This document shows positions 3,006 through 13,829 of a DNA stretch of 13,829 nt, one piece after another. Under the pieces are notes generated by a model. That model worked only from the letters and a program-made list of their open reading frames with translations, did not search any database and was not told the DNA's origin. A program made the position numbers and the translations under genes. This DNA comes from a virus, in UHGV virus genome UHGV-0094592; one strand, given 5' to 3'. Each line of letters opens with the position of its first letter. Position 1 is the stretch's first letter.

Positions 3006-3030
3006 AATTAACTACACCATTAACTACACC
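3006..3030. repeat. Island-boundary direct repeat, left copy (AATTAACTACACCATTAACTACACC; tandem 12-mer ATTAACTACACC x2); candidate att/arm site
   Basis: Perfect 25/25 identity to 13622-13646; imperfect homology continues about 45 bp to the right of both copies. Confidence 0.75.
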
Positions 3031-3521
3031 GTTCGGTGCACTGTATGCAACAATGCGGAACAAATAGACACAAGCGACGGGCTATACCGTTATCATTTTC
3101 CGGCTATCCGCCATGAAGCTGGTGGATGATCACGGATAAACCGTTATGGAAGTCCCCATATCGGCATCATGCCCACCAGCGAGATTAGTTATCTGGTTGC
3201 TGATGGGAGGCTGACGAACCTCGATGCTAGGGTGCGCAAAACTAGTGAGACCTTTTTTCTCTGCAACAGGCCCATAATTCGCGTTTTCTTTGTCTGCCGT
3301 AAGGTGGGGGATTTTTGGCGGATCCAGCAATGGCGCGGATTTTGTGATTTTTTATAGATAGACCTCATCTATCAATCCCGTGCACACCTTCCCAAAAAAA
3401 GTTTTCGAACCTGCGGCGATGTGAACAAGGGTAGGCGGGCGGTCCCATAAGCAATGAGGTGTAGGGATTTCTATCCCCCTGGGGGTATTAAACACCACCC
3501 GATTTAAATACCGTCTTTTTT

Positions 3522-3556
3522 GTCACTGTGTGTCACTCTCCGTCACGGTATGTCAC
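3522..3556. promoter_or_regulatory. Four helically phased GTCAC repeats (10-bp period); candidate protein-binding array
   Basis: GTCAC at 3522, 3532, 3542 and 3552, immediately downstream of the 93-aa gene stop (3563). Confidence 0.45.
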
Positions 3557-3562
3557 CACAAG

Positions 3563-3844
3563 TTAACGTCGTAACCGTTCCGGCTTCTTCCAGTGGTAAG
3601 TAATTTTTTCTTTCTCTTGGTACATCTGCACGCGGCGACGGTACGACAACATCTCCAGAACTCTGGCGCGTATGTTGCGCATATCCACGCCGTTAAGCTC
3701 GATACCGTCACGGCGCATCACCTCAGCAACAACACGCACATAATTTTCAGCGGTCACGCTGTCCGGCTGCGTGGCCTGTTCGTCAGCCTGCTGGCTGATT
3801 CCGGTAACGCGGCGGATTAATCGCAGTATTTCGGCTTCTGTCAT
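3563..3844 (-). CDS. Hypothetical protein (93 aa) downstream of TerS; possible packaging accessory factor
   Basis: ORF with RBS GGGGG 4 nt upstream of the ATG (3844); basic C-terminus. No recognisable family from sequence alone. Confidence 0.6.
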   Translation of the reverse strand: MTEAEILRLIRRVTGISQQADEQATQPDSVTAENYVRVVAEVMRRDGIELNGVDMRNIRARVLEMLSYRRRVQMYQEKEKITYHWKKPERLRR

Positions 3845-3917
3845 TGTGCCCCCATCGCTCTGATAGCCTGGTGTCGTCAGGTCCTTCCTGGAATTATGGC
3901 CCGTTACGGGGCGGCGG

Positions 3918-4460
3918 TTACTCGCCTTTGTTCTGTAGCAACTTCTCAGGCGCGCTTCCGGTAGTTTCCATCAGGTAATCAGCCAGTATCTGTGGCAGGT
4001 TTTCGTCAAGTCTTGCACATGCGTTACATGCTTTGGCTATTTCCCTTTTTAGTTCATCCAGCATATACGGCCTTATATCGGGAAAGCGCCTTTGCATTGT
4101 GAGCGGGAGGCTGTCCATGATTGATGAAATCTGACTCGCTAGTTTTGAAATCGCGTAGATGCAAAACTTTGTATCAATCACCTCGCCGCGTTCGCGCTCG
4201 TTTTTAAGTTCCTGCGCTTCCGCCTGTGCTGTCAGCAATCTGATTCTTACGCGTAAAAGTTCATCATCATCAATCTCGCCTTTGTCGTTTGTAAGCTGGT
4301 TAATTGCATTGTTAACCCTATTGTCTATCACGCTAGCAACATCATAAAACGCCTCACGGCCTTTACGCTCAACGGGAGTTACTCCCCACTTGTCGAACGC
4401 TGTCGCACTTACGCGGCAGCTTTGCGCCATAGTTTTTTTGTTCATCAGGTGCGATTTCAT
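3918..4460 (-). CDS. Terminase small subunit, phage lambda Nu1-like
   Basis: Translation (...RLLTAQAEAQELKNERERGEVIDTKFCIYAISKLASQISSIMDSLPLTMQRRFPD...) matches lambda gpNu1 as I recall it (RLTRAQADAQELKNARDSAEVVETAFCTFVLSRIAGEIASILDGLPLSVQRRFPE). ORF track start is GTG 4472; ATG at 4460 has RBS GGGGA and ATG at 4445 aligns with the Nu1 N-terminus (M..NKK). Confidence 0.85.
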   Translation of the reverse strand: MKSHLMNKKTMAQSCRVSATAFDKWGVTPVERKGREAFYDVASVIDNRVNNAINQLTNDKGEIDDDELLRVRIRLLTAQAEAQELKNERERGEVIDTKFCIYAISKLASQISSIMDSLPLTMQRRFPDIRPYMLDELKREIAKACNACARLDENLPQILADYLMETTGSAPEKLLQNKGE

Positions 4461-4472
4461 CAATATCCCCAC

Positions 4473-4637
4473 TTAGTTAAGGTTTCAGGTTGGTGTGTTG
4501 GTGTTATCTTTCCCTTTTTATTCATAGAGATAGAGCGAAAAACAAAACCACCACCACCAACCCGAAAAGGCTCATAAATAGCGAAAATCCGCAAGGTCGC
4601 CGCCCCGTAACGGGTCCATATGCCGGAAAGGACCCGT
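4473..4637 (-). other. Lambda-type cos site (cosQ-cosN-cosB) with exact cosN 12-mer GGGCGGCGACCT (minus strand, 4605..4594)
   Basis: Minus strand reads ...TTTACGGGTCCTTTCCGG-CATATGGACCCGTTACG-GGGCGGCGACCT-TGCGGATTTTCGCTATTTATGAGCCTTTTCGGG. Lambda right and left ends read ...TTTACGGGTCCTTTCCGGTGATCCGACAGGTTACG / GGGCGGCGACCTCGCGGGTTTTCGCTATTTATGAAAATTTTCCGG. It lies directly upstream of the Nu1-like gene, as in lambda. Confidence 0.85.
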
Positions 4638-4660
4638 AAAAAAAGCCGGATTTCTCCGGC
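4638..4660 (-). terminator. Rho-independent terminator after the capsid operon (stem GCCGGA/TCCGGC, 7-T run on minus strand)
   Basis: Hairpin 4645-4660 followed on the minus strand by TTTTTTT (4644..4638), 6 bp downstream of the 137-aa gene stop. Confidence 0.7.
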
Positions 4661-4666
4661 CTTATG

Positions 4667-5080
4667 TCAGATGGTTTTCAGTATGCGATCGACGTCGCCT
4701 TCATCGCCCTGGTTTCTGCCGTCGTATGCCATGCCGGGTGATACGGCTTTCGGGCTGTGCATGTCCATAAAGTTTTCAAAGGCTGCGGTAAGCTCCGGCG
4801 CAACCTTCGGGCGCTCCTGCTCTATGGTCATGTTCAGGATTTCACGAGCATTATCGACGCTAATACATGGCACGTTTGCCATTGCACGTAACAGCGGCTG
4901 ATAGTCGTTATGTTCATGAAGCGCCATAATCGCATCAGCGCGCGGCTTGTCCTGCTCTTCCAGTTTGTTGAGTTGATATACGGCCTCGTAGGTTGATAAA
5001 CCTCTGTCAGCCATTGCCCGCGCTTCTGCTTTAAATTTACTCGCCAGCGGTAGCGCCATGATGCTTTCATTCGTTGCCAT
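4667..5080 (-). CDS. Hypothetical capsid-module protein (137 aa), acidic; possible scaffold or size-determination factor
   Basis: ORF with RBS AGGGGAA 3 nt upstream of ATG 5080; sits between the gpD-like gene and the terminator/cos. No confident family assignment. Confidence 0.6.
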   Translation of the reverse strand: MATNESIMALPLASKFKAEARAMADRGLSTYEAVYQLNKLEEQDKPRADAIMALHEHNDYQPLLRAMANVPCISVDNAREILNMTIEQERPKVAPELTAAFENFMDMHSPKAVSPGMAYDGRNQGDEGDVDRILKTI

Positions 5081-5092
5081 CGTTTCCCCTGC

Positions 5093-5428
5093 TTATCGCG
5101 CCAGCGGCTGAACGGATACGCCAGAACCCGCAAAGGCGGCGCATTTTTTCGCGTCAGTGTCGGCGCTCTCAGGCCAGTTTACGGCGGCGATATTAAATAT
5201 CCCCGTCTTGTAACACTGTGCTGATTTCTGCTTTGACGTGTCCACGGGGTACGAGGTCAGATAAACAGCCTTCCCAGATTCCTGACCATCCCACGGCTTA
5301 AACTCGCCATTGTCCGCCAGCATCAGCGGGGTAAATTCCTGAATAACGCCAGCATCAGCGGCAAAATGTACCAGCGTCGTGGATACCTGCTGACTGCCTG
5401 CAAATAACTCAATGTATGGAGTGTCCAT
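5093..5428 (-). CDS. Head decoration protein, lambda gpD-like
   Basis: ...FTPLMLADNGEFKPWDGQ...YKTGIFNIAAVNWPESADTDAKKCAAFAGSGVSV versus recalled lambda gpD ...MTPLMLDTSSRKLVAWDGT...[44 protein letters not shown] 4 nt upstream of the ATG. Confidence 0.8.
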   Translation of the reverse strand: MDTPYIELFAGSQQVSTTLVHFAADAGVIQEFTPLMLADNGEFKPWDGQESGKAVYLTSYPVDTSKQKSAQCYKTGIFNIAAVNWPESADTDAKKCAAFAGSGVSVQPLAR

Positions 5429-5439
5429 AGAATCCCCCG

Positions 5440-6495
5440 TTAAGCAATTTTGACGGTAACAAATTTGCGAATATCTGCCGGAACCGGCTGCGGTGCGCTG
5501 TGCGTCTGCACGTACTCAATCGCCGGATCGCCGTCCTCAATCCAGTTTTTCGGGTAGTACATGTTTTGCGTTGCGCCTGTTCTTACCGCTTCCTGATCCA
5601 TAATCGCACCATAGGCCACCAGCCCTTTGTTGTTGGTGTTGCCCAGGACCAGCAAATCAGGATCAAGGAAATATTTTTCTGTGCCGTCGCTGTCAGTGTA
5701 TTTGCCGGAATAGACGATAAGGGCCAGATCACCAAGATAGCCTTTAAAGCTCACCACTTCGCCCAGGTTTTTACATGCCAGCTCTGCGGCGGATTCTGAA
5801 CCACGGGAGAGATCGTACAGTTCACGGAATTTTTTAAAGCTGCGTAACATGCGCCATACATCAACGCCCATAATCATGACGTTTGCGGGGCAACCTGCCT
5901 GATCTGCGTATAGCTCAATGTCATAGATTGGGTCGTGTATGTCTTTGTCCTGCTCTGACCATTTTTTACCGTCGGCCTGCTCTATGATGTTTTTTTCCGG
6001 TATCTTCCAGTCGATTTCATAGCGCTCTATGCCTTCGCCCTCAATGATGTTTTTTCCGGTCGTTATCGCATTCACCGCCAGCCATTCCACGCGCGCTTTA
6101 ATGGCGTTTATCTGGCGGCGCATGTTGCCAGTAATCAGGCGCATACGGCGGTAGGTAGGGTCGTTAAGCTGTGCCGGATCTTCTCCAGCCATGCGCATTA
6201 TTGTTTTTAATGGATCGATTTCGTGTTTTGGCTTCATGTAGCCAGGGCGAATAATGCTGGTTTCGTACCCTTTATCGCGCTGAACCTGGCTACCAACCAT
6301 AGGCGAACAAAACGCCGACATAGTGACTTCTTCAATATCCAGGTTATCTAACATGATGTCCTGTGTGTTGAATGTCGCCACGTTCGGGAAAAACAGCGCG
6401 GTAAACAGCGGACTAAATTTAAATTCCGCAATATCCTCGCGATTCAGGTACGCGAAAAGCTGGTGTGTGTTAAGTGCCATTGCTTTGACTGCCAT
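5440..6495 (-). CDS. Major capsid protein, lambda gpE-like (351 aa)
   Basis: Conserved blocks EFKFSPLF, RPGYMKPKHEIDP, EDPAQLNDPTYRRMRLI, WSEQDKDIHDP, VSFKGYLGDLALIVYSGKYTD, LLVLGNTNNKGLVAYGAIMD and YPKNWIEDGDPAIE align with recalled lambda gpE (KFKFDPLF, TPGYVKPKHEVNP, EDPQNLADPAYRRRRII, WSKRDKSTYDP, VSYKGMYGDVAIVVYSGQYVE, MVLGNTQARGLRTYGCIQD, YPKNWVTTGDPAREF). [11 protein letters not shown]; start overlaps the upstream stop (TAATG). Confidence 0.9.
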   Translation of the reverse strand: MAVKAMALNTHQLFAYLNREDIAEFKFSPLFTALFFPNVATFNTQDIMLDNLDIEEVTMSAFCSPMVGSQVQRDKGYETSIIRPGYMKPKHEIDPLKTIMRMAGEDPAQLNDPTYRRMRLITGNMRRQINAIKARVEWLAVNAITTGKNIIEGEGIERYEIDWKIPEKNIIEQADGKKWSEQDKDIHDPIYDIELYADQAGCPANVMIMGVDVWRMLRSFKKFRELYDLSRGSESAAELACKNLGEVVSFKGYLGDLALIVYSGKYTDSDGTEKYFLDPDLLVLGNTNNKGLVAYGAIMDQEAVRTGATQNMYYPKNWIEDGDPAIEYVQTHSAPQPVPADIRKFVTVKIA

Positions 6496-6701
6496 TATTC
6501 ACCCCCATGAGTCTGATTTATGCCCAGCGCCGCGCGTAAATAGGAGCGTACCTGCCAGCCTGTTGACGGCTCAACCATCGCCAGCGGATCAAGTCCTGCC
6601 GCAATGCCTGCTTTTACGTTCTGCTGGTGGCGTTCCTTGAGCGCCTTCACGATGTCGGGGCTTATGTACACCGAAACACCGCCTTTTTTCTCTTCAGCCA
6701 T
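6495..6701 (-). CDS. Hypothetical small protein (68 aa), first gene of the capsid operon, translationally coupled to the major capsid gene
   Basis: RBS AAGAGGAA 7 nt upstream of ATG 6701; its stop overlaps the capsid ATG. Confidence 0.6.
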   Translation of the reverse strand: MAEEKKGGVSVYISPDIVKALKERHQQNVKAGIAAGLDPLAMVEPSTGWQVRSYLRAALGINQTHGGE

Positions 6702-6729
6702 AGTAAGAAATTCCTCTTTGACTTAAAAA

Positions 6730-6786
6730 ATTATAACTGGATGTTCATCCAGCTCTGATTATAATCAGGATTGCATTTTGTGCAAT
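6730..6786 (-). promoter_or_regulatory. Candidate capsid-operon promoter (perfect -10 TATAAT on minus strand, weak -35) with three adjacent palindromes upstream
   Basis: Minus-strand TATAAT at 6735..6730. Palindromes TGGATGttCATCCA (6738-6751), CTGATTATAATCAG (6755-6768) and ATTGCAttttgTGCAAT (6770-6786) lie immediately upstream in minus sense. Confidence 0.5.
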
Positions 6787-6866
6787 GATATTGAGTTGTG
6801 TTGCAAATTATGAAATGATGATCCCGCTCATGTGTGTCAGTGCACCAAAAAGCCTCATATGCAAAA

Positions 6867-6903
6867 GCCCGATAAGCCACCTCTGACCTTATCGGGCTTT
6901 TTT
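6867..6903 (+). terminator. Strong hairpin with a T-run on both strands (plus-strand T6); bidirectional terminator-like element
   Basis: Stem GCCCGATAAG/CTTATCGGGC (10 bp, 11-nt loop) followed by TTTTTT on plus and TTTT on minus. Confidence 0.55.
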
Positions 6904-7078
6904 ATCTGCCTGCAAAGATGTCGAACGAAAATTAACCACAACCATCATCTTTTTTGCATCAAAACAATTAAAAACAATAAATTACGCTCATGATGATGAT
7001 GACGATAAAATCACAAAAATGCGCTTTTTTCCGCGCCTCCCGCCCCGTGTTCAGGCCCACCCCGCCAGGAGGACCCGT

Positions 7079-7100
7079 AAAAAAGCCGGATTGCTCCGGC
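7079..7100 (-). terminator. Rho-independent terminator after ssb; sequence paralog of the cosQ-side terminator at 4638-4660
   Basis: Stem GCCGGA/TCCGGC with loop, followed on minus strand by TTTTTT; 17 bp downstream of the ssb stop. About 35 bp are near-identical to 4631-4660. Confidence 0.7.
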
Positions 7101-7116
7101 TTCTGTCACTCGTCGC

Positions 7117-7539
7117 TTAAAACGGTATGTTATCCCCGTACGGATCATCATTCCCCGCCTGTTGTTTTGCCCTGTTCAGCGCGTCAGTAGCCTGGCCCTG
7201 TTGACCTTTTTTGCCGCCCAGTCGCGCCGTTCGCGCACTGATTACACTGTCTGCGATAACCTGCCAGCCCTGCCGCGTTTCTCCGTTCTGCCCAGTCCAC
7301 TGGCTGATCTGCATGTTACCCGCCACGCTCAGGAGTTCACCCTTGCGGTGCCTTTCCAGTGCTTCGGCCTGTCTGCCAAATGCCAGGACGGATAACCACA
7401 TCGTCGCCGTTCCGTCATCTGCCTGGCTGCACGGAAGGGGGACCGCCATACGCGCCAGCGTCATCGGTGTGCCCTTGCTGGTCTGTTTTACCTGCGGGTC
7501 GTCCACCAGCCGCCCGTAAGCTGCTATCTGTGCTGTCAT
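7117..7539 (-). CDS. ssb: Single-stranded DNA-binding protein (SSB-like OB-fold with C-terminal ...DNIPF tail)
   Basis: 140 aa. N-terminal OB-fold pattern resembles E. coli SSB; the protein ends ...NDDPYGDNIPF, an acidic IPF tail like the DDDIPF tail of E. coli SSB. Start overlaps the upstream gene stop (ATGA). Confidence 0.8.
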   Translation of the reverse strand: MTAQIAAYGRLVDDPQVKQTSKGTPMTLARMAVPLPCSQADDGTATMWLSVLAFGRQAEALERHRKGELLSVAGNMQISQWTGQNGETRQGWQVIADSVISARTARLGGKKGQQGQATDALNRAKQQAGNDDPYGDNIPF

Positions 7540-7787
7540 GATTCCACCTCTCCGGTTTTAACGTTGATGGTTGTTACCTGTTCCGCTTCGGCAATCTCCC
7601 GCTCTGTCAGCGTGGCAAAATTTGCCGCCGTCGTGGTCATGAATGCGCTTATCAGTTCGGGATGTGCTTTCGCGTATCCTTCCCCCGCGTGGCGGTCTAT
7701 CGTTCTGATTGCCACCTTTAAAGCGTGCTCTGTCATGTCTAACGCTTTATATTTTGGCGCTGTCTTATCTCTGGTTTTTCTGGTCAT
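7536..7787 (-). CDS. Hypothetical protein (83 aa), translationally coupled to ssb
   Basis: ORF immediately downstream of the iteron region; stop overlaps the ssb start. Confidence 0.55.
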   Translation of the reverse strand: MTRKTRDKTAPKYKALDMTEHALKVAIRTIDRHAGEGYAKAHPELISAFMTTTAANFATLTEREIAEAEQVTTINVKTGEVES

Positions 7788-7796
7788 TCCTCACTG

Positions 7797-7990
7797 CTCC
7801 CCACTTTTACTACCCACTTTTTGAAATTACCCAACGTCTCCCCACTTCTTTTTTTTGTGATTCTAACGTGATGTTTTTCAATGTGTTTTTTATTCCCCAC
7901 TTTTTGGGGTATATACAGGTGGGAAAGTGGGGAATCACGTTTCAATTTTGTTAAATTCCCCACACTCCCCACTTTTACTACCCACTTTTT
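7797..7990. repeat. Putative origin of replication: iteron array (CCCCACTTTT family) flanking an AT-rich core
   Basis: 23-bp direct repeat CTCCCCACTTTTACTACCCACTTTT at 7797-7821 and 7965-7989. Additional TCCCCACTT copies at 7837-7848, 7893-7905, 7957-7966 and an inverted copy at 7924-7934. Located directly 3' of the helicase gene. Confidence 0.7.
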
Positions 7991-9404
7991 ACAGTGGGCG
8001 CACGTCATCACCGTCAATAGCAATAACGCCATCACCTTCCAGCTTGTACAGCCAGCGCCGGAAGTGTTTCATCTCATACCCCAGCTTTTTCATATCATCG
8101 CGCAACAACGGAATAGTGCATTTATCTCCGCGCTGTGTGCGTGAACGGATACAGCCCCATAGCGCGGCATGATTCTCCGTCTTGTTCCCGGCTTCCTCGA
8201 TGCGCTCCAGTTCAACGGGTGGGCGCGGCTTATCCACAACAACCAGCGACGTGATTAACTCCCCGTCAGTGTCGGTAAAAAGCTCCACCACACGTAAATC
8301 GTATGCGGCCTCTTTCAGTTCCTCCGCGTCCTTCATTTTTGTGCAGGAGATAACCAGGGCTTCACTGTCTGCACCTTCACGGCGAATACGGTATTCAGCG
8401 TCCAGAGATGCACGAAATGCACTGGAACCACGCGCCCCCTTTGTTTCATCCTTGCCGGAATGGTGAACCACCAGCACCGTGGCCCCTGTGCGGCGTTTCA
8501 GTTCGTCACATCCACGGATAAACGCCCCCATATCCCGCGCGTCATTTTCATCATTACCGCCAAAGCAACGCGCCAGCGTATCAAGAATAATCATGCGTAC
8601 CGGTTTACCCGTTTCCCGTTCAACCTGGCGGGAAGCGATGACCATTTCATCAACATCAAGCGGGACTGCCGGAAAAATCGGGCGGTTTACCAGGTACAGA
8701 TTTTCCACCCGTTCATCATTAACGATTTCCCATGCCTTGATACGGCGGGGGACACCAATGCCACCTTCACCGACAACATACATCACCGAACCATGCGCCA
8801 CCCTGCGGCCTCCCCAGTGACGGCCAGTGGCAACATGACACGCCCAGGAACACGCGAGGAACGATTTATAGGAACCGCTCGCGCCGTATGTGCTGCACAA
8901 TGAATTAGCCGGAATCACGCCCTTAACGACATAATCAAGCTGTGTGTCGTACCCTGCAGATCCAATGCTCATTGGTAGCGTGGTTTTTCGCTGGCTGTAT
9001 TGCTCGTCAGTAAGTATTTCCCCGCGCTCTGCCTGTTCGCGGATCCGTTGCAGGTAGTCGTGCCAGTTCTCCAGCTTCTGGCTGTGCATTCCATCAGGGT
9101 AATAATTCGCATCCCGTACACCTGCCGCCGCCAGCTTTTGCCCGATAGCATTAATATTTGACGGCTTGATGTGGCCTGCCTTGTACAGCCGGACACAATA
9201 GCGACCATCGTCGATAATTTTCAGGTCTGCCAGTTCGTCAAGCTGGCTGTCTCCCAGCCATACAGGCGGGACGTTATCACCAGCAAGTCGCCCGTCCTGT
9301 TCCTGCCACTGTTTCGCGTGCGCCCAGGCATCACTACCCGCAAAAATAATGACTTCGGTCATTTTGTCGTGTGGCTGTTTTTTTAAGTTCGGTGCCAGTT
9401 TCAT
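7989..9404 (-). CDS. Replication helicase, RepA/AAA_25-like P-loop NTPase with an N-terminal domain of unknown function
   Basis: 471 aa. P-loop-like YGASGSYKSF, Walker B-like RMIILDTLARCFGG and the VLVVHHSGKD motif typical of RepA/AAA_25-type helicases. RBS AGGGG. Start overlaps the upstream stop (ATGA). Confidence 0.8.
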   Translation of the reverse strand: MKLAPNLKKQPHDKMTEVIIFAGSDAWAHAKQWQEQDGRLAGDNVPPVWLGDSQLDELADLKIIDDGRYCVRLYKAGHIKPSNINAIGQKLAAAGVRDANYYPDGMHSQKLENWHDYLQRIREQAERGEILTDEQYSQRKTTLPMSIGSAGYDTQLDYVVKGVIPANSLCSTYGASGSYKSFLACSWACHVATGRHWGGRRVAHGSVMYVVGEGGIGVPRRIKAWEIVNDERVENLYLVNRPIFPAVPLDVDEMVIASRQVERETGKPVRMIILDTLARCFGGNDENDARDMGAFIRGCDELKRRTGATVLVVHHSGKDETKGARGSSAFRASLDAEYRIRREGADSEALVISCTKMKDAEELKEAAYDLRVVELFTDTDGELITSLVVVDKPRPPVELERIEEAGNKTENHAALWGCIRSRTQRGDKCTIPLLRDDMKKLGYEMKHFRRWLYKLEGDGVIAIDGDDVRPL

Positions 9405-9700
9405 TTTTTGCCCCTGAATGCGTTAATCATGTTTTTCATTTTCTGAATATTTGCCCGTGCCTTTGCGTTGCTGGTGGGCTGTTTGCGTGGTGTGGCCTGT
9501 ATCAGTGAAAAATCACGCCGGAACTGATAAGCAGGCATCACGCAGTCATAGCCGTACCCATCACGGCGGTAAGTAACGCACCGCCCCGCCACGCTTTTAA
9601 TCGTTACCGTGCCACCGTAGTTATCCCGGAAAATATCGCCGGGGCGGATTTCAGGCCGAGGGAGACCACTGGCAGTAAAGCCAGAATTTTTCTGTTTCAT
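9401..9700 (-). CDS. Hypothetical protein (99 aa), basic
   Basis: ORF with GGAG upstream; operon member immediately 5' of the helicase gene. Confidence 0.55.
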   Translation of the reverse strand: MKQKNSGFTASGLPRPEIRPGDIFRDNYGGTVTIKSVAGRCVTYRRDGYGYDCVMPAYQFRRDFSLIQATPRKQPTSNAKARANIQKMKNMINAFRGKK

Positions 9701-9706
9701 GTTTTT

Positions 9707-9925
9707 TTACTCCAGAGGCAGATTTTTAGCGGCGAGTTCAATATCAGATGTCAGAGAAACCTGTGTATTTGCCAGGTCTAACAACAAAGAAATAAGAATT
9801 TCCTCTCTGCTATCGGATTCATCGGTGCTAAGGCTGTTCATCCACATATTGACGACTTCCCTGATTTTTTTCGCAGAGTGCAGGGCTTCAAATGCCAGGT
9901 CTTCAATATCATGTTTATTTCGCAT
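9707..9925 (-). CDS. Hypothetical protein (72 aa from internal ATG; ORF track lists 9707..9991)
   Basis: ATG at 9925 has RBS GGGGG and avoids overlap with the upstream gene; the longer track ORF would overlap it by 77 nt. Confidence 0.5.
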   Translation of the reverse strand: MRNKHDIEDLAFEALHSAKKIREVVNMWMNSLSTDESDSREEILISLLLDLANTQVSLTSDIELAAKNLPLE

Positions 9926-10127
9926 AATCGCCCCCGCGTAACTGGTCTGCACTAACACCCGATTTAGTGAGCATTTCAGAAAATCCCGCAAGAGTGCTGA
10001 TAAATTCGTTTTCCATTAAACGGCACTGGCATTTAACCCGGCCTTTTTCCAGATACACCAGTACGCGCCCCGTATAATCTGACGGCACATTCAGCACTAC
10101 AGATAAGTGCGCTTCATTATTATTCAT
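9915..10127 (-). CDS. Hypothetical protein (70 aa)
   Basis: Strong RBS GGAGGTG 7 nt upstream of ATG 10127. Confidence 0.55.
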   Translation of the reverse strand: MNNNEAHLSVVLNVPSDYTGRVLVYLEKGRVKCQCRLMENEFISTLAGFSEMLTKSGVSADQLRGGDYAK

Positions 10128-10356
10128 GGCTCACCACCTCCATATCAGCCATGATAATTTTGCTGGCCTCATTCAGTGCCATATCAGCACTAAGTTGCAT
10201 TACAGCCAGTGAATGAGGAACGAAAGCCCCGGCATATTCTGTTTCACTGGTAGCGTGCTTATGCGCCCTGTCCGCGATAACAGAAATATCAATCAGCGCA
10301 TCAATCAGTGTTTTGATTGCTTCGGCGGCTGCGTCCGGACGGGTGTTATTGCACAT
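10120..10356 (-). CDS. Hypothetical protein (78 aa)
   Basis: RBS GGGGG upstream of ATG 10356; 8-nt overlap with the downstream gene. Confidence 0.55.
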   Translation of the reverse strand: MCNNTRPDAAAEAIKTLIDALIDISVIADRAHKHATSETEYAGAFVPHSLAVMQLSADMALNEASKIIMADMEVVSHE

Positions 10357-10552
10357 GGTGCACCCCCTGACGAATACGGGCGGCGAATACCATCACGCAG
10401 CCAGCCGGTGATTGCTGACGGGCTTCCTGTTCGCTGGTGGCCTCAATGGTAATCACGCGCGGTTGTGCCGTACTCAGGGCGATAAAACGCCAGATGTATT
10501 TATTCAGGTTGTGCGAGTCCCGCCCTTGCGGGTGTATGGTATGATTTCTCAT
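10346..10552 (-). CDS. Hypothetical protein (68 aa), first gene of the replication-module operon (ORF track lists a TTG-start version 10346..10642)
   Basis: ATG at 10552 is preceded by GAGG. The longer version would extend into the operator/promoter region. Confidence 0.5.
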   Translation of the reverse strand: MRNHTIHPQGRDSHNLNKYIWRFIALSTAQPRVITIEATSEQEARQQSPAGCVMVFAARIRQGVHHVQ

Positions 10553-10571
10553 AGCAGCCTCGATAATCTTG

Positions 10572-11762
10572 CTATCGTTGGTGGTTAGACGCCCCGTATG
10601 TGTTTCCGGCACTGCGGGGCGTTGCTCTTTGTATTTCAACAATTCTTTTGGTGTGTTTCATGTTATGAGCGCATGAAACACACGTCAAGGCTTTTTGTAT
10701 TTCTTTTTTTGTGTATACTGAAACACACCGATGATTAGGAGTTTCAGAAATGGCAACGGCTAACAAAAACGCAAAATCACAACTGACAACTGTCAGAGTC
10801 CCACTAGATGTTATGCAAGGGATGGAATCCGTTAAGCTGGACGGCGAAAGCAATGCCGGATTTATCGTAACCGCCATGCGCGGAGAAATAGCCCGCCGCC
10901 AAGCAGAAGGCAGCGGAGAAAATCCCCTTGTGTCGTCACTGGATGCCCTGGCTAAGGTCGAACAAATCGGCATCAAAGCAGCGGAAGAAATCGGGCAGCT
11001 TGTCACCGTTGCACGCGAAGAACTCCAGCGTCGCAAGACCAAAGAACCAGAGTAATCACCATCAGCGCCGTGGTGTAAGGTATTACGGCGCATTGCTATG
11101 CAGGACAACACAATGACCGATAAAGAATTGACCAAAACATTATCACCGGCACGGAAAAGACGGCGCAGAAAGATAGAGCATGAATCAGAAAGATTCGCGC
11201 CATGTGCTTTTGCTCTTGAGAAATTCCTTAAAGAGCACAGGAAAAAGCTCTCGTTGCAAACCTTGGAACGAACCAAATCTGACTGATCACATTGCCCACC
11301 AGCCGCAAATGTGGCATTGTTGGTGATGCTCATGCGTTGGGGATAACGTGTAGCTTGTGTCGAGGGGCCACCGTAGCGGGTGGCCTTTGTTTTGCCTGTT
11401 ATCCGGCAATTGTGGCGCTTCGCCACACGGTTGATATAATCCCACTGCTCAGATTCATTTTTTGCGCAGTAGGTTAATTGTTCACAAAGGCGCTCCGGCA
11501 ACGGGGCGCTTTTTGTTTTTATTAGTTTGTAGAAACCTGACTCAGAGATAATGCTCATATTCTGATTGCCGTCAGGGGTGTAAGTTAAATTTACTCCCTT
11601 TTTATCATCAAACATCTGCAACGCTCTGGCGTTAACAATATTGGTTTCACTCCCGCCAGTAAGGCCGGAAATAACCGGAATAATTTCGGCAAAATTTTGC
11701 AGATTCTGTTTTTCAGGACGAACGAAGCCCCGCCCTTGTTCGGGAGAATATCCAGTATTCAT
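10572..11762 (-). CDS. Long open frame; only the N-terminal ~100 codons (from ATG 11762) look protein-like, with a possible Bro-N/KilA-N-like motif. The rest is probably non-coding or a pseudogene remnant
   Basis: N-terminus contains IISESGFYKLIKTKS, resembling a Bro-N-type motif as I recall it. The C-terminal two thirds are Ser/Cys/Arg-rich and antisense to two plus-strand ORFs with good RBSs, and span two plus-oriented terminators. Confidence 0.3.
   Translation of the reverse strand: MNTGYSPEQGRGFVRPEKQNLQNFAEIIPVISGLTGGSETNIVNARALQMFDDKKGVNLTYTPDGNQNMSIISESGFYKLIKTKSAPLPERLCEQLTYCAKNESEQWDYINRVAKRHNCRITGKTKATRYGGPSTQATRYPQRMSITNNATFAAGGQCDQSDLVRSKVCNESFFLCSLRNFSRAKAHGANLSDSCSIFLRRLFRAGDNVLVNSLSVIVLSCIAMRRNTLHHGADGDYSGSLVLRRWSSSRATVTSCPISSAALMPICSTLARASSDDTRGFSPLPSAWRRAISPRMAVTINPALLSPSSLTDSIPCITSSGTLTVVSCDFAFLLAVAISETPNHRCVSVYTKKEIQKALTCVSCAHNMKHTKRIVEIQRATPRSAGNTYGASNHQR
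10651..10688 (-). promoter_or_regulatory. Sigma70-like promoter for the minus-strand operon (TTGACG-17-TAACAT) fully overlapped by a 12-bp inverted-repeat operator
   Basis: Minus strand -35 TTGACG (10688..10683) and -10 TAACAT (10665..10660). Operator GTGTGTTTCATG-9bp-CATGAAACACAC spans 10651-10683. Related GAAACACA sites lie at 10720-10728 and in the hairpin loop at 10596-10627. Confidence 0.6.
10750..11055 (+). CDS. Hypothetical regulator-like protein (101 aa), divergently transcribed from the island operons; candidate repressor
   Basis: Strong RBS TAGGAG 8 nt upstream. Plausible -10 TATACT (10714-10719) with an operator half-site at the predicted start. Balanced composition; N-terminal beta-strand plus helix pattern (TTVRVPLDVMQGMESVKL) reminiscent of ribbon-helix-helix proteins. 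Confidence 0.6.
   Translation: MATANKNAKSQLTTVRVPLDVMQGMESVKLDGESNAGFIVTAMRGEIARRQAEGSGENPLVSSLDALAKVEQIGIKAAEEIGQLVTVAREELQRRKTKEPE
11113..11286 (+). CDS. Hypothetical small basic protein (57 aa; ORF track lists 11098..11286)
   Basis: ATG at 11113 has AGGA 7 nt upstream; very basic (RKRRRRK) N-terminal segment. Confidence 0.45.
   Translation: MTDKELTKTLSPARKRRRRKIEHESERFAPCAFALEKFLKEHRKKLSLQTLERTKSD
11366..11393 (+). terminator. Rho-independent terminator (stem GGCCACC/GGTGGCC, then TTTGTTTT) for the plus-strand unit
   Basis: Perfect 7-bp stem with 6-nt loop and a T-rich tail on the plus strand. Confidence 0.6.
11490..11520 (+). terminator. Second plus-strand rho-independent terminator (stem GCGCTCCG/CGGGGCGC, GCAA tetraloop, TTTTTGTTTTT)
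   Basis: 8-bp stem with one G-U pair, GNRA-type loop, and 11-nt T-rich tail. Confidence 0.65.
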
Positions 11763-11814
11763 GGTTAGATCTCTGTATTAGTGGATGGGTGGCGGCTGTG
11801 TGCCGCCAGCCTGA

Positions 11815-12003
11815 TTAGTGAACTGCCTCGCAGCTTTCCTTCCATGCCAGAACTTCGGATAAAGACCAGCCAACGGAACGACCGCCGAGCTTACGCCGTG
11901 ATGGGAATTGTCCGGTTTTTTCCAGGCGGTACCGACATGAACGGCTCAGGCCTGTAAGTTGCTGACATTCTTTTTCACGTATAAAGCGATCTGTGCTTAA
12001 CAC
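11815..12003 (-). CDS. alpA: AlpA-family (prophage CP4-57-type) transcriptional regulator, 62 aa from GTG start
   Basis: Motif ...CQQLTGLSRSCRYRLEKTGQFPSRRKLGGRSVGWSLSEVLAWKESC is the AlpA/Vis-type HTH signature. GTG at 12003 is preceded by AGGGGGA. ORF track lists a longer 11815..12171 version. Confidence 0.8.
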   Translation of the reverse strand: MLSTDRFIREKECQQLTGLSRSCRYRLEKTGQFPSRRKLGGRSVGWSLSEVLAWKESCEAVH

Positions 12004-12288
12004 AATTCCCCCTTTGATATTTCTTAAAGAGTTATTTGGTGTCCTATTGTGTTGTGGTGCGTCGGATTGTGTCAGGGTGTTTATGGAATGGCAAACACTG
12101 GCGGCGGTCATTTTACAGAAGTGTGGTAATGAGAATAAAAACTCTTTTAATTCATTGTGGTGCAAAGGCATAAAATTCTGTTTTTACGCCTTTTTTACAT
12201 GTTTTTAAGAGTGATTCGCCAATGTACAAAAAGCCAGTAAAACGACTGAAAATCAACTTTTTAGGGTGTCAGTCAGATGTTAATCAAG

Positions 12289-12346
12289 TTTGTTCCAGAT
12301 TGTTCGCCGTTGTTCGTCGTGGTGTCTCGTTGTTTCACGTTGTGTC
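12289..12346. promoter_or_regulatory. Cluster of TTGTTCG-like direct repeats between int and alpA; candidate regulator binding sites
   Basis: TGTTCC 12291, TTGTTCG 12300, TTGTTCG 12310 (10-bp spacing), TTGTTTC 12330, TTGTGTC 12340. Confidence 0.4.
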
Positions 12347-12370
12347 AGTTCTAAAAAATCGCAAAAAAAA

Positions 12371-13621
12371 TTATATTTCTCTGGCTATTGGCAGTGTGGT
12401 TACGTTTTTGTGAGTACCCGCCAGTATCTCTAACCGCTCTGTCCACATGTCCAGCGCATTACGTTTCGCATCGAGATAACGGGAGTGGTTATAGACTCGC
12501 TGCATCCCTGGCATCTGGTGAGCGGTGAGTTGTTCGACAATATGCGGATCCACGCCTAAATCGTTCAGCATCGTGGTAAACGTGCGCCGTATATCGTGTA
12601 GTGACCAGTGCGGATGGTTTAATTTTTTGTGCATGAATCTGCCGTATTGCGACACACTGGCTTCCTGTTTCAGTTCCCCGAGTAATAGCCCTGTGTGTCT
12701 GTTCTGCTCCACCAGCTGCGTGACGAACGGTAAAATGCTTTCCGGTATTGGCCTGAATATGGCGACCTTCGTTTTGCTGTGCTCTTTCGGTACTGTCCAG
12801 AGCATTTCCTTAAAATCCCACTCCCTGATCTCCGATAATCTCAGTTCTCCGGTTCGGCAGCCGAACACAATCAGGAGGCGGATTAGTGCGCTGTAGTAGG
12901 GCGGGAATATTTTTTTATCCAGCGCCTGTAATAATTCGCCAAGTTCTTTGTTGCTCAGCACGCGTTCGCTTATGCCTGGTTTTTTGCCAACGTCCACCAC
13001 GTTAAGATCATCCAGAACGTTACTGACTGCGTAGCGACGTTTACGGCAGAACTTAAGCGCCTGTTTACACGCCTGCATCATGTGACCAGACGTTACAGGG
13101 GATTTTTTGCGTATCCGGTCAAAACAGGCCAGCCAGTGACGTAACTCGCATTTATCCAGTGGCATATTGCCAATATGCTGTATGACGTGATTATTCAGGC
13201 GGCTTTTCAGGCATACGTAATCGACACGGTTTTCCTTTACGTGCATTTCCAGCCAGTAGCTGATCGCATCACCCACCGTTACCGGCTTTAGTGCTTCCTG
13301 TATGGAGTAATTAAGCTCATGGCGTGGATTTTTTCCTTCTGCCAGCCATGCGCGACACTGTGCCGCTTTTTCCCTGGCTGCTTTCAGGCTCAGATCAGGA
13401 TAATTTCCCAGCTTCAGGCGTTCCGGTGATACCTGGCGTCCAGCTCCTGCTCTGTAGGTGAAATACCAGGTTAATAAGCCGCTGGTGGAATGCCTGACGC
13501 TCAGGTTTCCACCGTCATTAAGAAATGTGGTTTTTGGGGCTGGTGTGCCGTTGATTTTTCTTAGCTGTGTATCGCTCAGTTTGTTAAGTGCTCTGCTCAT
13601 AATTTTGAATCCGGTCATCAC
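12371..13621 (-). CDS. int: Tyrosine recombinase / integrase, P4-type
   Basis: 416-codon ORF. N-terminal region LSDTQLRKI...YPDLSLKAAREKAAQ resembles P4-family integrase N-termini. C-terminal catalytic motifs include HDIRRTF (HxxR) and a tyrosine within RVYNHSRYLD. ORF-track start is GTG 13621; in-frame ATGs at 13618 and 13600 are alternative starts. Confidence 0.9.
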   Translation of the reverse strand: MMTGFKIMSRALNKLSDTQLRKINGTPAPKTTFLNDGGNLSVRHSTSGLLTWYFTYRAGAGRQVSPERLKLGNYPDLSLKAAREKAAQCRAWLAEGKNPRHELNYSIQEALKPVTVGDAISYWLEMHVKENRVDYVCLKSRLNNHVIQHIGNMPLDKCELRHWLACFDRIRKKSPVTSGHMMQACKQALKFCRKRRYAVSNVLDDLNVVDVGKKPGISERVLSNKELGELLQALDKKIFPPYYSALIRLLIVFGCRTGELRLSEIREWDFKEMLWTVPKEHSKTKVAIFRPIPESILPFVTQLVEQNRHTGLLLGELKQEASVSQYGRFMHKKLNHPHWSLHDIRRTFTTMLNDLGVDPHIVEQLTAHQMPGMQRVYNHSRYLDAKRNALDMWTERLEILAGTHKNVTTLPIAREI

Positions 13622-13646
13622 AATTAACTACACCATTAACTACACC
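13622..13646. repeat. Island-boundary direct repeat, right copy (AATTAACTACACCATTAACTACACC), immediately upstream of int
   Basis: Identical to 3006-3030. Confidence 0.75.
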
Positions 13647-13829
13647 GATCATTGCACAAGGGGGTACAACGTGGAACAAGTTGGAACAAGAAAAATTGCA
13701 ATGAGCTTAAAAATCAAAAACATAATGAACAACGTGGCACATTATGAAACAGCAAAAAACACTAATTTATAAAATCACAGCGATGAATATAAAATGCCAG
13801 GTTATTGCCCCTTCCCGCATACCAAAATC

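Follow-up and report, generated by a model that had tools for sequence, protein, structure and literature searches.

The DNA analysed here, the 13,829-nt virus genome UHGV-0094592 (hereafter the window, meaning the whole of this stretch), contains the phage-inducible chromosomal island (PICI) EcCIDi14, within which a cos site lies directly in front of a gene for a small terminase subunit (TerS) of the Nu1 family. We propose that this site is the primary packaging site of the island, equivalent to cos1 of the PICI EcCICFT073, and that it is probably used by the island's own TerS in combination with the large terminase subunit (TerL) of a helper phage, a reading that sequence comparison leads us to hold with a probability of about 0.6. 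The site fits a composition of two modules, in which cosQ and cosN would serve TerL and cosB would serve the island TerS. The model that we offer for TerS-type islands would place an N15-type DNA-binding domain (DBD) on an R3-like element rich in G and T, at bp 50-68 counted from the cohesive end, beside a cosN and cosQ of lambda type.

The two halves of the cos site

The 12-nt cohesive-end sequence GGGCGGCGACCT is present as a single, exact copy at 4594-4605 (all features are on the minus strand of the window unless noted), where 0.04 matches with up to one mismatch would be expected in the window by chance, and this cosN is identical to those of lambda, of cos1 and cos2 of EcCICFT073 and of CFT073 phage 4. 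An exact lambda cosN had been claimed in a first-pass annotation of this DNA, and the match held when the region was aligned to lambdoid cos regions. The same is true of the lambda-like cosQ described alongside it: the cosQ-like element TTTACGGGTCCTTTCCGG (4623-4640) is identical to the lambda right end at 18 of 18 positions and, in an ungapped line-up with the joined lambda ends, stands at the same distance from cosN as in lambda, with 27 of the 36 bases to the left of cosN identical by manual count. In lambda, cosQ is the termination signal read by TerL; its core CGGGTCCTTTCC is invariant across genera, and an 18-bp spacer ending in TTACG separates the island's cosQ from cosN. On the other side, cosN is followed by the cosN-proximal spacer TGCGGATTTTCGCTATTTATGA (bp 13-34, 4572-4593; 20/22 positions or 91% identical to lambda), by 111 bp of non-coding DNA and by the TerS start codon (ATG 4460). 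The spacer includes GCTATTTATGA, which is kept in all Nu1-family cos regions examined. The flank that had earlier been taken for a lambda-like cosB, GATTTTCGCTATTTATGA, is indeed lambda-like, but it represents this cosN-proximal spacer and not the R sequences to which TerS binds. When 4440-4680 was compared by BLASTN with a collection of 50,697 phage records, lambda-type cos regions were found in 92 of them, and the match to lambda itself (82.9% over 82 bp, E = 6e-15) covered window positions 4559-4640 only; the similarity therefore ends where the lambda R sequences would begin. The cosQ-cosN segment in front of the island-borne Nu1-family TerS gene is thus a genuine lambda-type site.

The recognition half is of a different kind. 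Over cosB proper (bp 35-140) the identity to lambda is 54% in a global alignment, and other unrelated cosB pairs give 45-55%; a search of the window for the lambda R3 and R2/R1 sequences, allowing up to three mismatches, found neither. These comparisons support the view that the TerS-binding part of cosB is not that of lambda. Bp 50-68 are occupied by the G/T-rich element TGGTGGTGGTTTTGTT, and the R3-like element TGGTGGTGGTTTTGTTTTT at this position (4538-4556) has a single mismatch to the family consensus TGGTGGTGGTTTTGTTGTT, with 0.01 matches expected. It is located as is R3 in N15 and in lambda, whose positions within cosB are known (PMC4669245, PMC9026076), and we propose it as the main binding site of the island TerS DBD. 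An A/T-rich spacer of 37 bp, read from the sequence (4501-4537), lies between it and an inverted R2-like element, ACACCAACACACCAACCTG (reverse complement GGTTGGTG; bp 101-120, 4486-4505), which together with 4555-4567 forms the inverted repeat I3. The family consensus of the latter element, CAATACACCAACCTG, is invariant in E. coli-type islands and takes the form ACACC[A/C]AC[C/T]TG in Kosakonia, Superficieibacter and metagenome relatives; Nissle-type islands carry a third, direct copy, AAGTTGGTGTAT, before the start codon. Overall, this layout resembles the Monarch-like complex cosB of the N15 class.

The protein encoded behind the site (3918-4460) is 180 aa long and belongs to the Nu1 family, matching PF07471 (Phage_Nu1) over residues 37-152 with 83.8 bits (cut-off 30) and phrog_57 over residues 5-176 (E = 8e-53). 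Its start is ATG 4460, as in RefSeq and in homologues, rather than the GTG at 4472 that opens the longest open reading frame (ORF), and lies 134 bp downstream of cosN (178 bp in lambda), so that the placement before a Nu1-like TerS reported by the first-pass annotation was borne out. A divergence from Nu1 had also been noted, and we find 37% identity (65/178) along the whole length in a BLAST alignment beginning at residue 6, together with a different recognition helix: SATAFDKW in the island, SVQAFDKW in N15 (6/8 residues shared) and SIRTIQNW in lambda (residues 17-24). In the core and C-terminal half the identity to Nu1 is approximately 55% by manual count, higher than in the first 50 residues, and the C-terminal 60 aa align to lambda and N15 at approximately 50%. 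The nearest phage relative is N15 gp1, with 48% identity over 168 aa and approximately 62% in the DBD. A search of the PDB with the single TerS sequence returned nothing relevant, and only a profile search reached lambda TerS, residues 6-84 of the island-type profile matching lambda TerS residues 1-98 (6HN7_B, E = 0.005); the same profile had no match to the RppC chain of 6HN7, and BLAST gave no alignment with RppA, the product of the packaging-specificity gene of EcCICFT073. We considered whether the island TerS might itself be an Rpp protein and rejected this: at 180 aa, against approximately 140-155 aa for Rpp proteins, it is collinear with Nu1 and has no RppA or RppC similarity, and it is therefore a full-length TerS and not an Rpp. 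Separately, a perfect 12-nt inverted repeat, ATTGATGAAATC / GATTTCATCAAT, occurs at 4120-4131 inside terS and at 4453-4464 over its start codon; it has one mismatch in the Nissle allele and is possibly due to chance.

Pairing of TerS and cosB among relatives

A scan of metagenomes yielded 66 loci with an island-type TerS. A species-wide scan of genomes returned mostly phage-type TerS and lambda contamination, together with two island-type loci, from Kosakonia (L006) and Superficieibacter (L007), in which the layout is as in the window: capsid, decoration, a 127/128-aa gene, cos and TerS. In E. coli-type loci with a lambda-like cosN (up to two mismatches), cosN stands 142-145 bp before the ATG. 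Hardly any variation is seen in GCTATTTATGA, TGGTGGTGGTTTTGTTGTT and CAATACACCAACCTG across 41 unique E. coli-type sequences, and all three are kept in four distant relatives whose TerS is 53-57% identical, the R3-like element being near-invariant throughout. Every TerS examined that has the AFDKW helix (35-100% identity) is preceded by GCTATTTATGA and then by a G/T-rich GGT(T/G)GTT element, and this extends to the more distant of them, which at 35-43% identity still lie behind GCTATTTATGA and a GGT(T/G)GTT-rich element. The protein is intact and 180 aa long in 50/50 loci (29 alleles), with a ratio of nonsynonymous to synonymous divergence (dN/dS) of 0.12-0.21. The DBD is its most constrained part (dN 0-0.03 versus dS 0.2-1.1) and the C-terminal 60 codons are the least constrained, and cosB is 80-92% identical in pairs with a synonymous divergence of 0.4-0.8. 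The comparison thus supports co-conservation of the TerS DBD and cosB, under strong purifying selection, across approximately 60 loci from several genera, as a matched TerS/cosB pair would predict.

The pair is nevertheless not peculiar to the island. N15 has a single critical R3, GAGGTTGTTGTT, at bp 48-59, of which bp 54-59 are the most important (Feiss et al. 2015, PMC4669245), and in prophages of the Monarch group R3 and the recognition helix are of N15 type and the layout is 'complex', R3-I1-R2-R1 (PMC4669245). EcCIDi14 resembles this group in its DBD, in a recognition helix that agrees with that of N15 at 6/8 positions and in having a G/T-rich R3-like element approximately 50 bp from the cohesive end and, as in the Monarch-type complex cosB, an inverted R2-like element is present. 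It differs from N15 in having lambda's cosN, GGGCGGCGACCT, in place of GGGCGGCGTCCG, and in its R3, which reads GGTGGTGGTTTTGTT in the island and GAGGTTGTTGTT in N15; the two are related in composition and position, with the GTTGTT block shifted by approximately 9 bp. N15 is moreover a phage, whereas EcCIDi14 is a 10.6-kb satellite with no TerL gene after TerS. With lambda, the island has in common cosN, cosQ, bp 13-34 and a TerS of the same Pfam family; it lacks the R3/R2/R1 sequences and the consensus for integration host factor (IHF), and its recognition helix is another one. Judged by these sequence features, the cosB/DBD pair probably belongs to the known N15/Monarch specificity class and is not island-specific. 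Of the earlier suggestion that the TerS is matched to an island-specific cosB, the matching is therefore retained and the island specificity is not.

The cutting half varies against this constant background. At the same cosB and TerS, the cosN 12-mers are GGGCGGCGACCT (n=37), GGGCGTCAGGCG (n=5), GGGCGTCGACCT (n=4), GGGCGGAAGGCG (n=3) and GGGCGGCAGACG (n=2), and the cosQ-side contexts of related islands fall into three classes. Different 12-mers on one TerS/cosB type would therefore give different cohesive ends and perhaps serve different helpers. We also observed the non-lambda 12-mers GGGCGTCAGGCG, GGGCGGAAGGCG, GGGCGGCAGACG and GGGCGTCAGGCT at the cosN position in loci L087, L089, L096, L100, L102-L107 and L109, where they stand approximately 145 bp upstream of TerS. 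On the protein side, the Superficieibacter TerS, read by eye, joins an island-type DBD to a C-terminal half almost like that of lambda Nu1; a two-domain organisation has been described for lambda-family TerS, and this composition fits a protein with two specificity domains.

The TerS-type arrangement is common: terS was found by megablast in 730 of 5426 complete E. coli genomes, versus 97 with rppA-like sequences (approximately sevenfold), and many unrelated strains share identical or near-identical TerS alleles, which are also found at other loci. In Kosakonia sp. S29, the ORF downstream of TerS (L006, 6739-7503) starts in the middle of a lambda gpE-like capsid sequence (LRRLPDEDPQNLADPAYRRRRI...) and is followed by head-tail genes, so that a prophage capsid gene seems to harbour this island, a situation like that of published helper-embedded PICIs. 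A set of contigs from the genome scan (L013-L018, L020, L023, L033-L036, L038, L042, L044, L046, L047, L056 and L058), labelled Kitasatospora, Paenibacillus, Chromatium, Bradyrhizobium, Shewanella and others, match the lambda left end at 99.3-100% identity, several of them beginning exactly at the cohesive end; they are almost certainly lambda DNA contaminating the assemblies.

Known satellites, a packaging model and its rivals

The closest characterised system is EcCICFT073, which belongs to the same PICI family and has the same order of capsid E-like gene, D-like gene, 137-aa gene, cos1, packaging-specificity gene, inverted cos2 and 93-aa gene. Its cosN copies, at 7559-7570 (+) and 8298-8309 (-) of L003:1-8700, flank rppA in inverted orientation and agree with the published cos1 and cos2 deletion primers. 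Compared with its cos1, the window site has an identical cosN and a cosQ side that is 97% identical, but a cosB proper that is only 45% identical, cosB being non-lambda in both; the window site is therefore a cos1 homologue with a different specificity half. The slot between the cos elements holds the 144-aa RppA (c1503/rppA) in EcCICFT073 and the 180-aa Nu1-family TerS in EcCIDi14, and cos2 is complete in the former and truncated in the latter. For EcCICFT073 it has been reported (PMC6092414, PMC6739421) that the cos sites have a phage-like cosQ and cosN and no recognisable phage cosB, that cos1 and cos2 each render a plasmid transducible by lambda and phi80, that deletion of cos1 strongly lowers transfer by these phages, deletion of cos2 raises it and deletion of both abolishes it, that helper terS is essential, and that RppA binds helper TerS to form a heterocomplex which recognises the cosB of cos1. 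RppA thus needs the helper TerS; the full-length TerS of EcCIDi14 should not.

Two other groups of satellites offer partial parallels. The pac-type Staphylococcus aureus pathogenicity islands (SaPIs) SaPI1 and SaPIbov1 follow the same logic of a satellite TerS, a helper TerL and a site found only in the satellite (PMC6092414, PMC10530653), but they package by the headful (pac) mechanism, with an unrelated TerS family and a separate interference protein, Ppi, whereas the island is of cos type with a Nu1-family TerS. Capsid-forming PICIs (cf-PICIs) likewise encode head proteins and TerS; as described in a preprint (bioRxiv 10.1101/2022.09.08.507074), all their capsid proteins are their own and tails alone come from the helper. 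EcCIDi14 differs in having only the E-like, D-like and 137-aa proteins and TerS within its att boundaries, and membership of this group was rejected, the complete capsid and packaging set, taken to include TerL and portal, not being found between the att sites.

We tentatively envisage the packaging of EcCIDi14 in the following way. Induction of the helper would lead to replication of the island and to concatemers, on which the N15-like winged-helix DBD of the island TerS would engage the R3-like and R2-like elements, while its lambda-like C-terminal region would recruit helper TerL. Helper TerL (gpA) would then nick cosN at 4594-4605, and packaging would run toward the TerS gene into helper-built heads, approximately four units filling a head before termination at cosQ-cosN. 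The unit is 10,616 bp, four units (42.5 kb) corresponding to 88% and five to 109% of the length of lambda; the packaging limit of lambda is about 105% of genome length, which five units would exceed, while four would fill a helper head. For EcCICFT073, phage-length DNA in phage-sized capsids has been reported. Because TerS of the lambda and 21 types do not use an N15-type cosB, only complexes that contain the island TerS would take up island DNA, and these complexes would compete with helper TerS for TerL; work from the Feiss laboratory showed that lambda and 21 terminases do not package N15-cos DNA. In this scheme the binding of TerS to the R3-like element, the recruitment of TerL, the identity of the helper and the activity of this copy are inferred.

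Several observations weigh against the proposed role of the site. The only two TerS-type E. coli islands assayed so far, those of IHE3034 and 18098, gave no transfer after mitomycin C induction of the resident prophages, and the literature searched contained no functional work on TerS-type Gram-negative cos PICIs; in IHE3034 the marker primer lies in the TerS-cos2 spacer, and the construct may not be neutral. The present copy sits in nested insertion sequence (IS) elements and has lost cos2, and could therefore be inactive. Its R3-like element has GTTTTT in place of the GTTGTT of the family consensus, a block that is critical in N15 and lies there 9 bp nearer to cosN than in the window family. 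The A/T-rich spacer occupies the place where complex cosB sites have an IHF site; no site for the IHF consensus WATCAANNNNTTR was found in cosB with up to one mismatch, the count across the window is at chance level, and an 'I1-like' reading of the spacer was dropped, IHF binding not being supported. Among the 50,697 phage records, none had a TerS C-terminus more than 55% identical to that of the island (best 54.5%), and this region evolves fast (dN 0.15-0.24) and carries a 12-aa extension, so that binding to lambda gpA is not assured. Nor was there a clear association between TerS C-terminal alleles and cosN type.

It is unlikely that the helper's own TerS-TerL complex uses the cos site and that the island TerS is a TerL-titrating interference factor or is dispensable, although such an arrangement would parallel the cos-type SaPIs. 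In the absence of Rpp, lambda and phi80 still transfer plasmids that carry EcCICFT073 cos1 or cos2, if at a lower level, even though the cosB of these sites is foreign; the island resembles lambda in cosQ, in cosN and in the spacer at bp 13-34, and the single test made of TerS-type islands detected no transfer. Against this stand the failure of lambda and 21 terminases on N15-type cos DNA and the conservation pattern, since, if the island TerS had no need to bind DNA, one would not expect the DBD to be the most conserved part of TerS or the cosB elements to be conserved beyond neutral expectation. The C-terminal region bears on a further, Rpp-like mode of action, in which the island TerS, with its DBD and coiled-coil, would form mixed oligomers with helper TerS, the hybrid reading cosB and the helper tail bringing in TerL. 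This we regard as improbable: the full-length C-terminal region is under purifying selection and is absent from Rpp, there is no RppA similarity and no match of the island-type profile to RppC, and the C-terminal halves of Superficieibacter type are almost like that of lambda Nu1, as expected for direct binding to TerL. Such hybrids would nonetheless suit a TerS that stands in the exact rppA slot between the same cos elements, whose central region (QAEAQELKN...) is so similar to lambda Nu1 that hetero-oligomers are conceivable, and whose own C-terminus has diverged from all known phage TerS.

We likewise give little credence to the idea that this copy is an intact-looking relic, stranded in nested insertion sequences and no longer mobilised. 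The IS110 transposase gene that it targets does lie inside an IS66 element, cos2 is truncated and the R3-like element is off consensus at one position, yet no island ORF is disrupted, the two att repeats match perfectly, TerS alleles that are identical or nearly so are widespread in unrelated strains and at other loci, and cos2 is absent from most family members, its deletion in EcCICFT073 having increased transfer. Use of the site by the island TerS together with helper TerL remains the reading that we prefer.

The second cos, the island and its neighbouring genes

On the plus strand at 3880-3916, a truncated and inverted second cos forms the inverted repeat I1, 37 nt long and 81% complementary to 4598-4634. 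In this cos2 remnant the TerS stop codon adjoins 8 nt of cosN and an inverted cosQ; a deletion has removed cosB2 and the remaining part of cosN. The same deletion is seen in five loci, cos2 is full in approximately 15 and absent in 27. A complete inverted cos2 is present in the Nissle 1917 island and in approximately 15 metagenome loci, 179 bp after the TerS stop codon. We therefore take cos2 to be accessory and the remnant in the window to be non-functional for initiation, which is consistent with the published rise in EcCICFT073 transfer on deletion of cos2. In the Nissle island, the cosB of cos2 (L002, 9353-9540) and that of CFT073 prophage 4 (L003, 44745-44930), a known PICI helper, are 74% identical, and the former has GTCGTTTC-type repeats resembling phage R sequences; a single island therefore carries two cos sites in opposed orientation, one of island type and the other of helper type. 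More generally, a variable cassette (cosB1, terS or rppA, and cosB2) is flanked by two inverted copies of cosN-cosQ, which suggests that it may be exchanged at these repeats.

The literature already contains the island, the annotation of its terS and the cos sites of the family, and a review of PICI packaging treats Rpp islands only. What is added here is the sequence-based assignment of cosB and DBD to the N15/Monarch class and comparative evidence that points to modular cos evolution. To our knowledge, Rpp is the sole cos-PICI packaging mechanism worked out so far. TerS-type cos PICIs might represent a third strategy of packaging hijack in Gram-negative satellites, a claim that we consider possible rather than probable when its three parts are taken jointly: that a TerS of N15 specificity replaces the helper TerS outright, exploiting the inability of lambda and 21 terminases on an N15-type cosB; that cos is built of exchangeable modules, the same cosB/TerS occurring with at least five cosN 12-mers and in three cosQ-side contexts; and that the cosB-terS/rpp cassette is swapped by terminase cutting and rejoining of cohesive ends, or by repeat recombination. 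If the packaging model proposed here is right, such islands should be mobilised by helpers without terS, and the cosB/TerS pair would offer lambda-based systems an orthogonal packaging signal that is ready to use. In E. coli, cos-type PICIs disseminate genes for virulence and fitness, and they are under development as delivery vehicles.

The island as a whole spans 3006-13647, bounded by 26-bp att direct repeats of the sequence CGGTGTAGTTAATGGTGTAGTTAATT at 3006-3031 and 13622-13647, which are perfect copies with none expected by chance. At 100% identity, the window matches E. coli 'clone D i14', from which EcCIDI14 has been catalogued as a 10.6-kb PICI (CP002212: 249047-259688) with an IS110 transposase as target and the same att sequence (Fillol-Salom 2018 supplement, PMC6092414). 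With the att sequence being the published one, the whole island lies inside the window, and it is the catalogued EcCIDi14. The gene into which it has inserted encodes the transposase of an IS110-family element (ISEc45), itself within an IS66 element (flanks 2451-2954); this unusual location has been remarked on before (PMC10111431). On the minus strand, the upstream part of the island encodes an integrase, a helix-turn-helix regulator, small ORFs, a DUF4222 protein, a RepA-family/AAA_25 helicase and a single-stranded DNA-binding protein, and the downstream part a gpE-like capsid protein, a gpD-like decoration protein, the 137-aa protein, cos, TerS and a 93-aa protein. All ORFs are intact. ORF and domain annotation found no large terminase, portal, protease, tail or lysis genes between the att sites. 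In its size, its integrase, regulator and replication genes and its own att sites, the island is a Gram-negative PICI of the EcCICFT073 type, and a degraded lambdoid prophage was rejected on account of this att-bounded 10.6-kb architecture.

The head-gene module upstream of cos (4667-6495; PF03864 and PF02924 matches) comprises the major capsid gene (5440-6495, 43% identity to lambda E), the decoration gene (5093-5428, 37% identity to lambda D) and the gene for the 137-aa protein (4667-5080). The last is found before cos in all family members and matches phrog_1999, a family of unknown function; it also has a weak match to the C-terminal portion of phrog_53, a head-protease/scaffold family. 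A role as a Nu3-type scaffold was considered and set aside, the weak phrog_53 match being only a hint and BLAST against lambda Nu3 giving no similarity. Directly 3' of this gene, at 4638-4663, a terminator-like hairpin with a 9-bp stem and a GAAA loop is followed by U7 (-16.9 kcal/mol, z = -3.7), the T-run adjoining cosQ. It was found by RNA folding, a simple terminator scan not having reported it, and one class of related islands retains it. A search of the TerS-coding strand within 3500-5200 revealed no sigma-70-like promoter, and with the hairpin standing between the head-gene module and cosQ, transcription of TerS may require read-through or a separate promoter.

The head-cos-TerS module of the window is 93% identical to that of the Nissle island. 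The replication modules differ: in place of the 471-aa RepA-family/AAA_25 helicase of the window (7989-9404), the islands of Nissle and CFT073 encode a 584-aa P4-type primase (L002, 13727-15481, and L003, 2242-3996, respectively).

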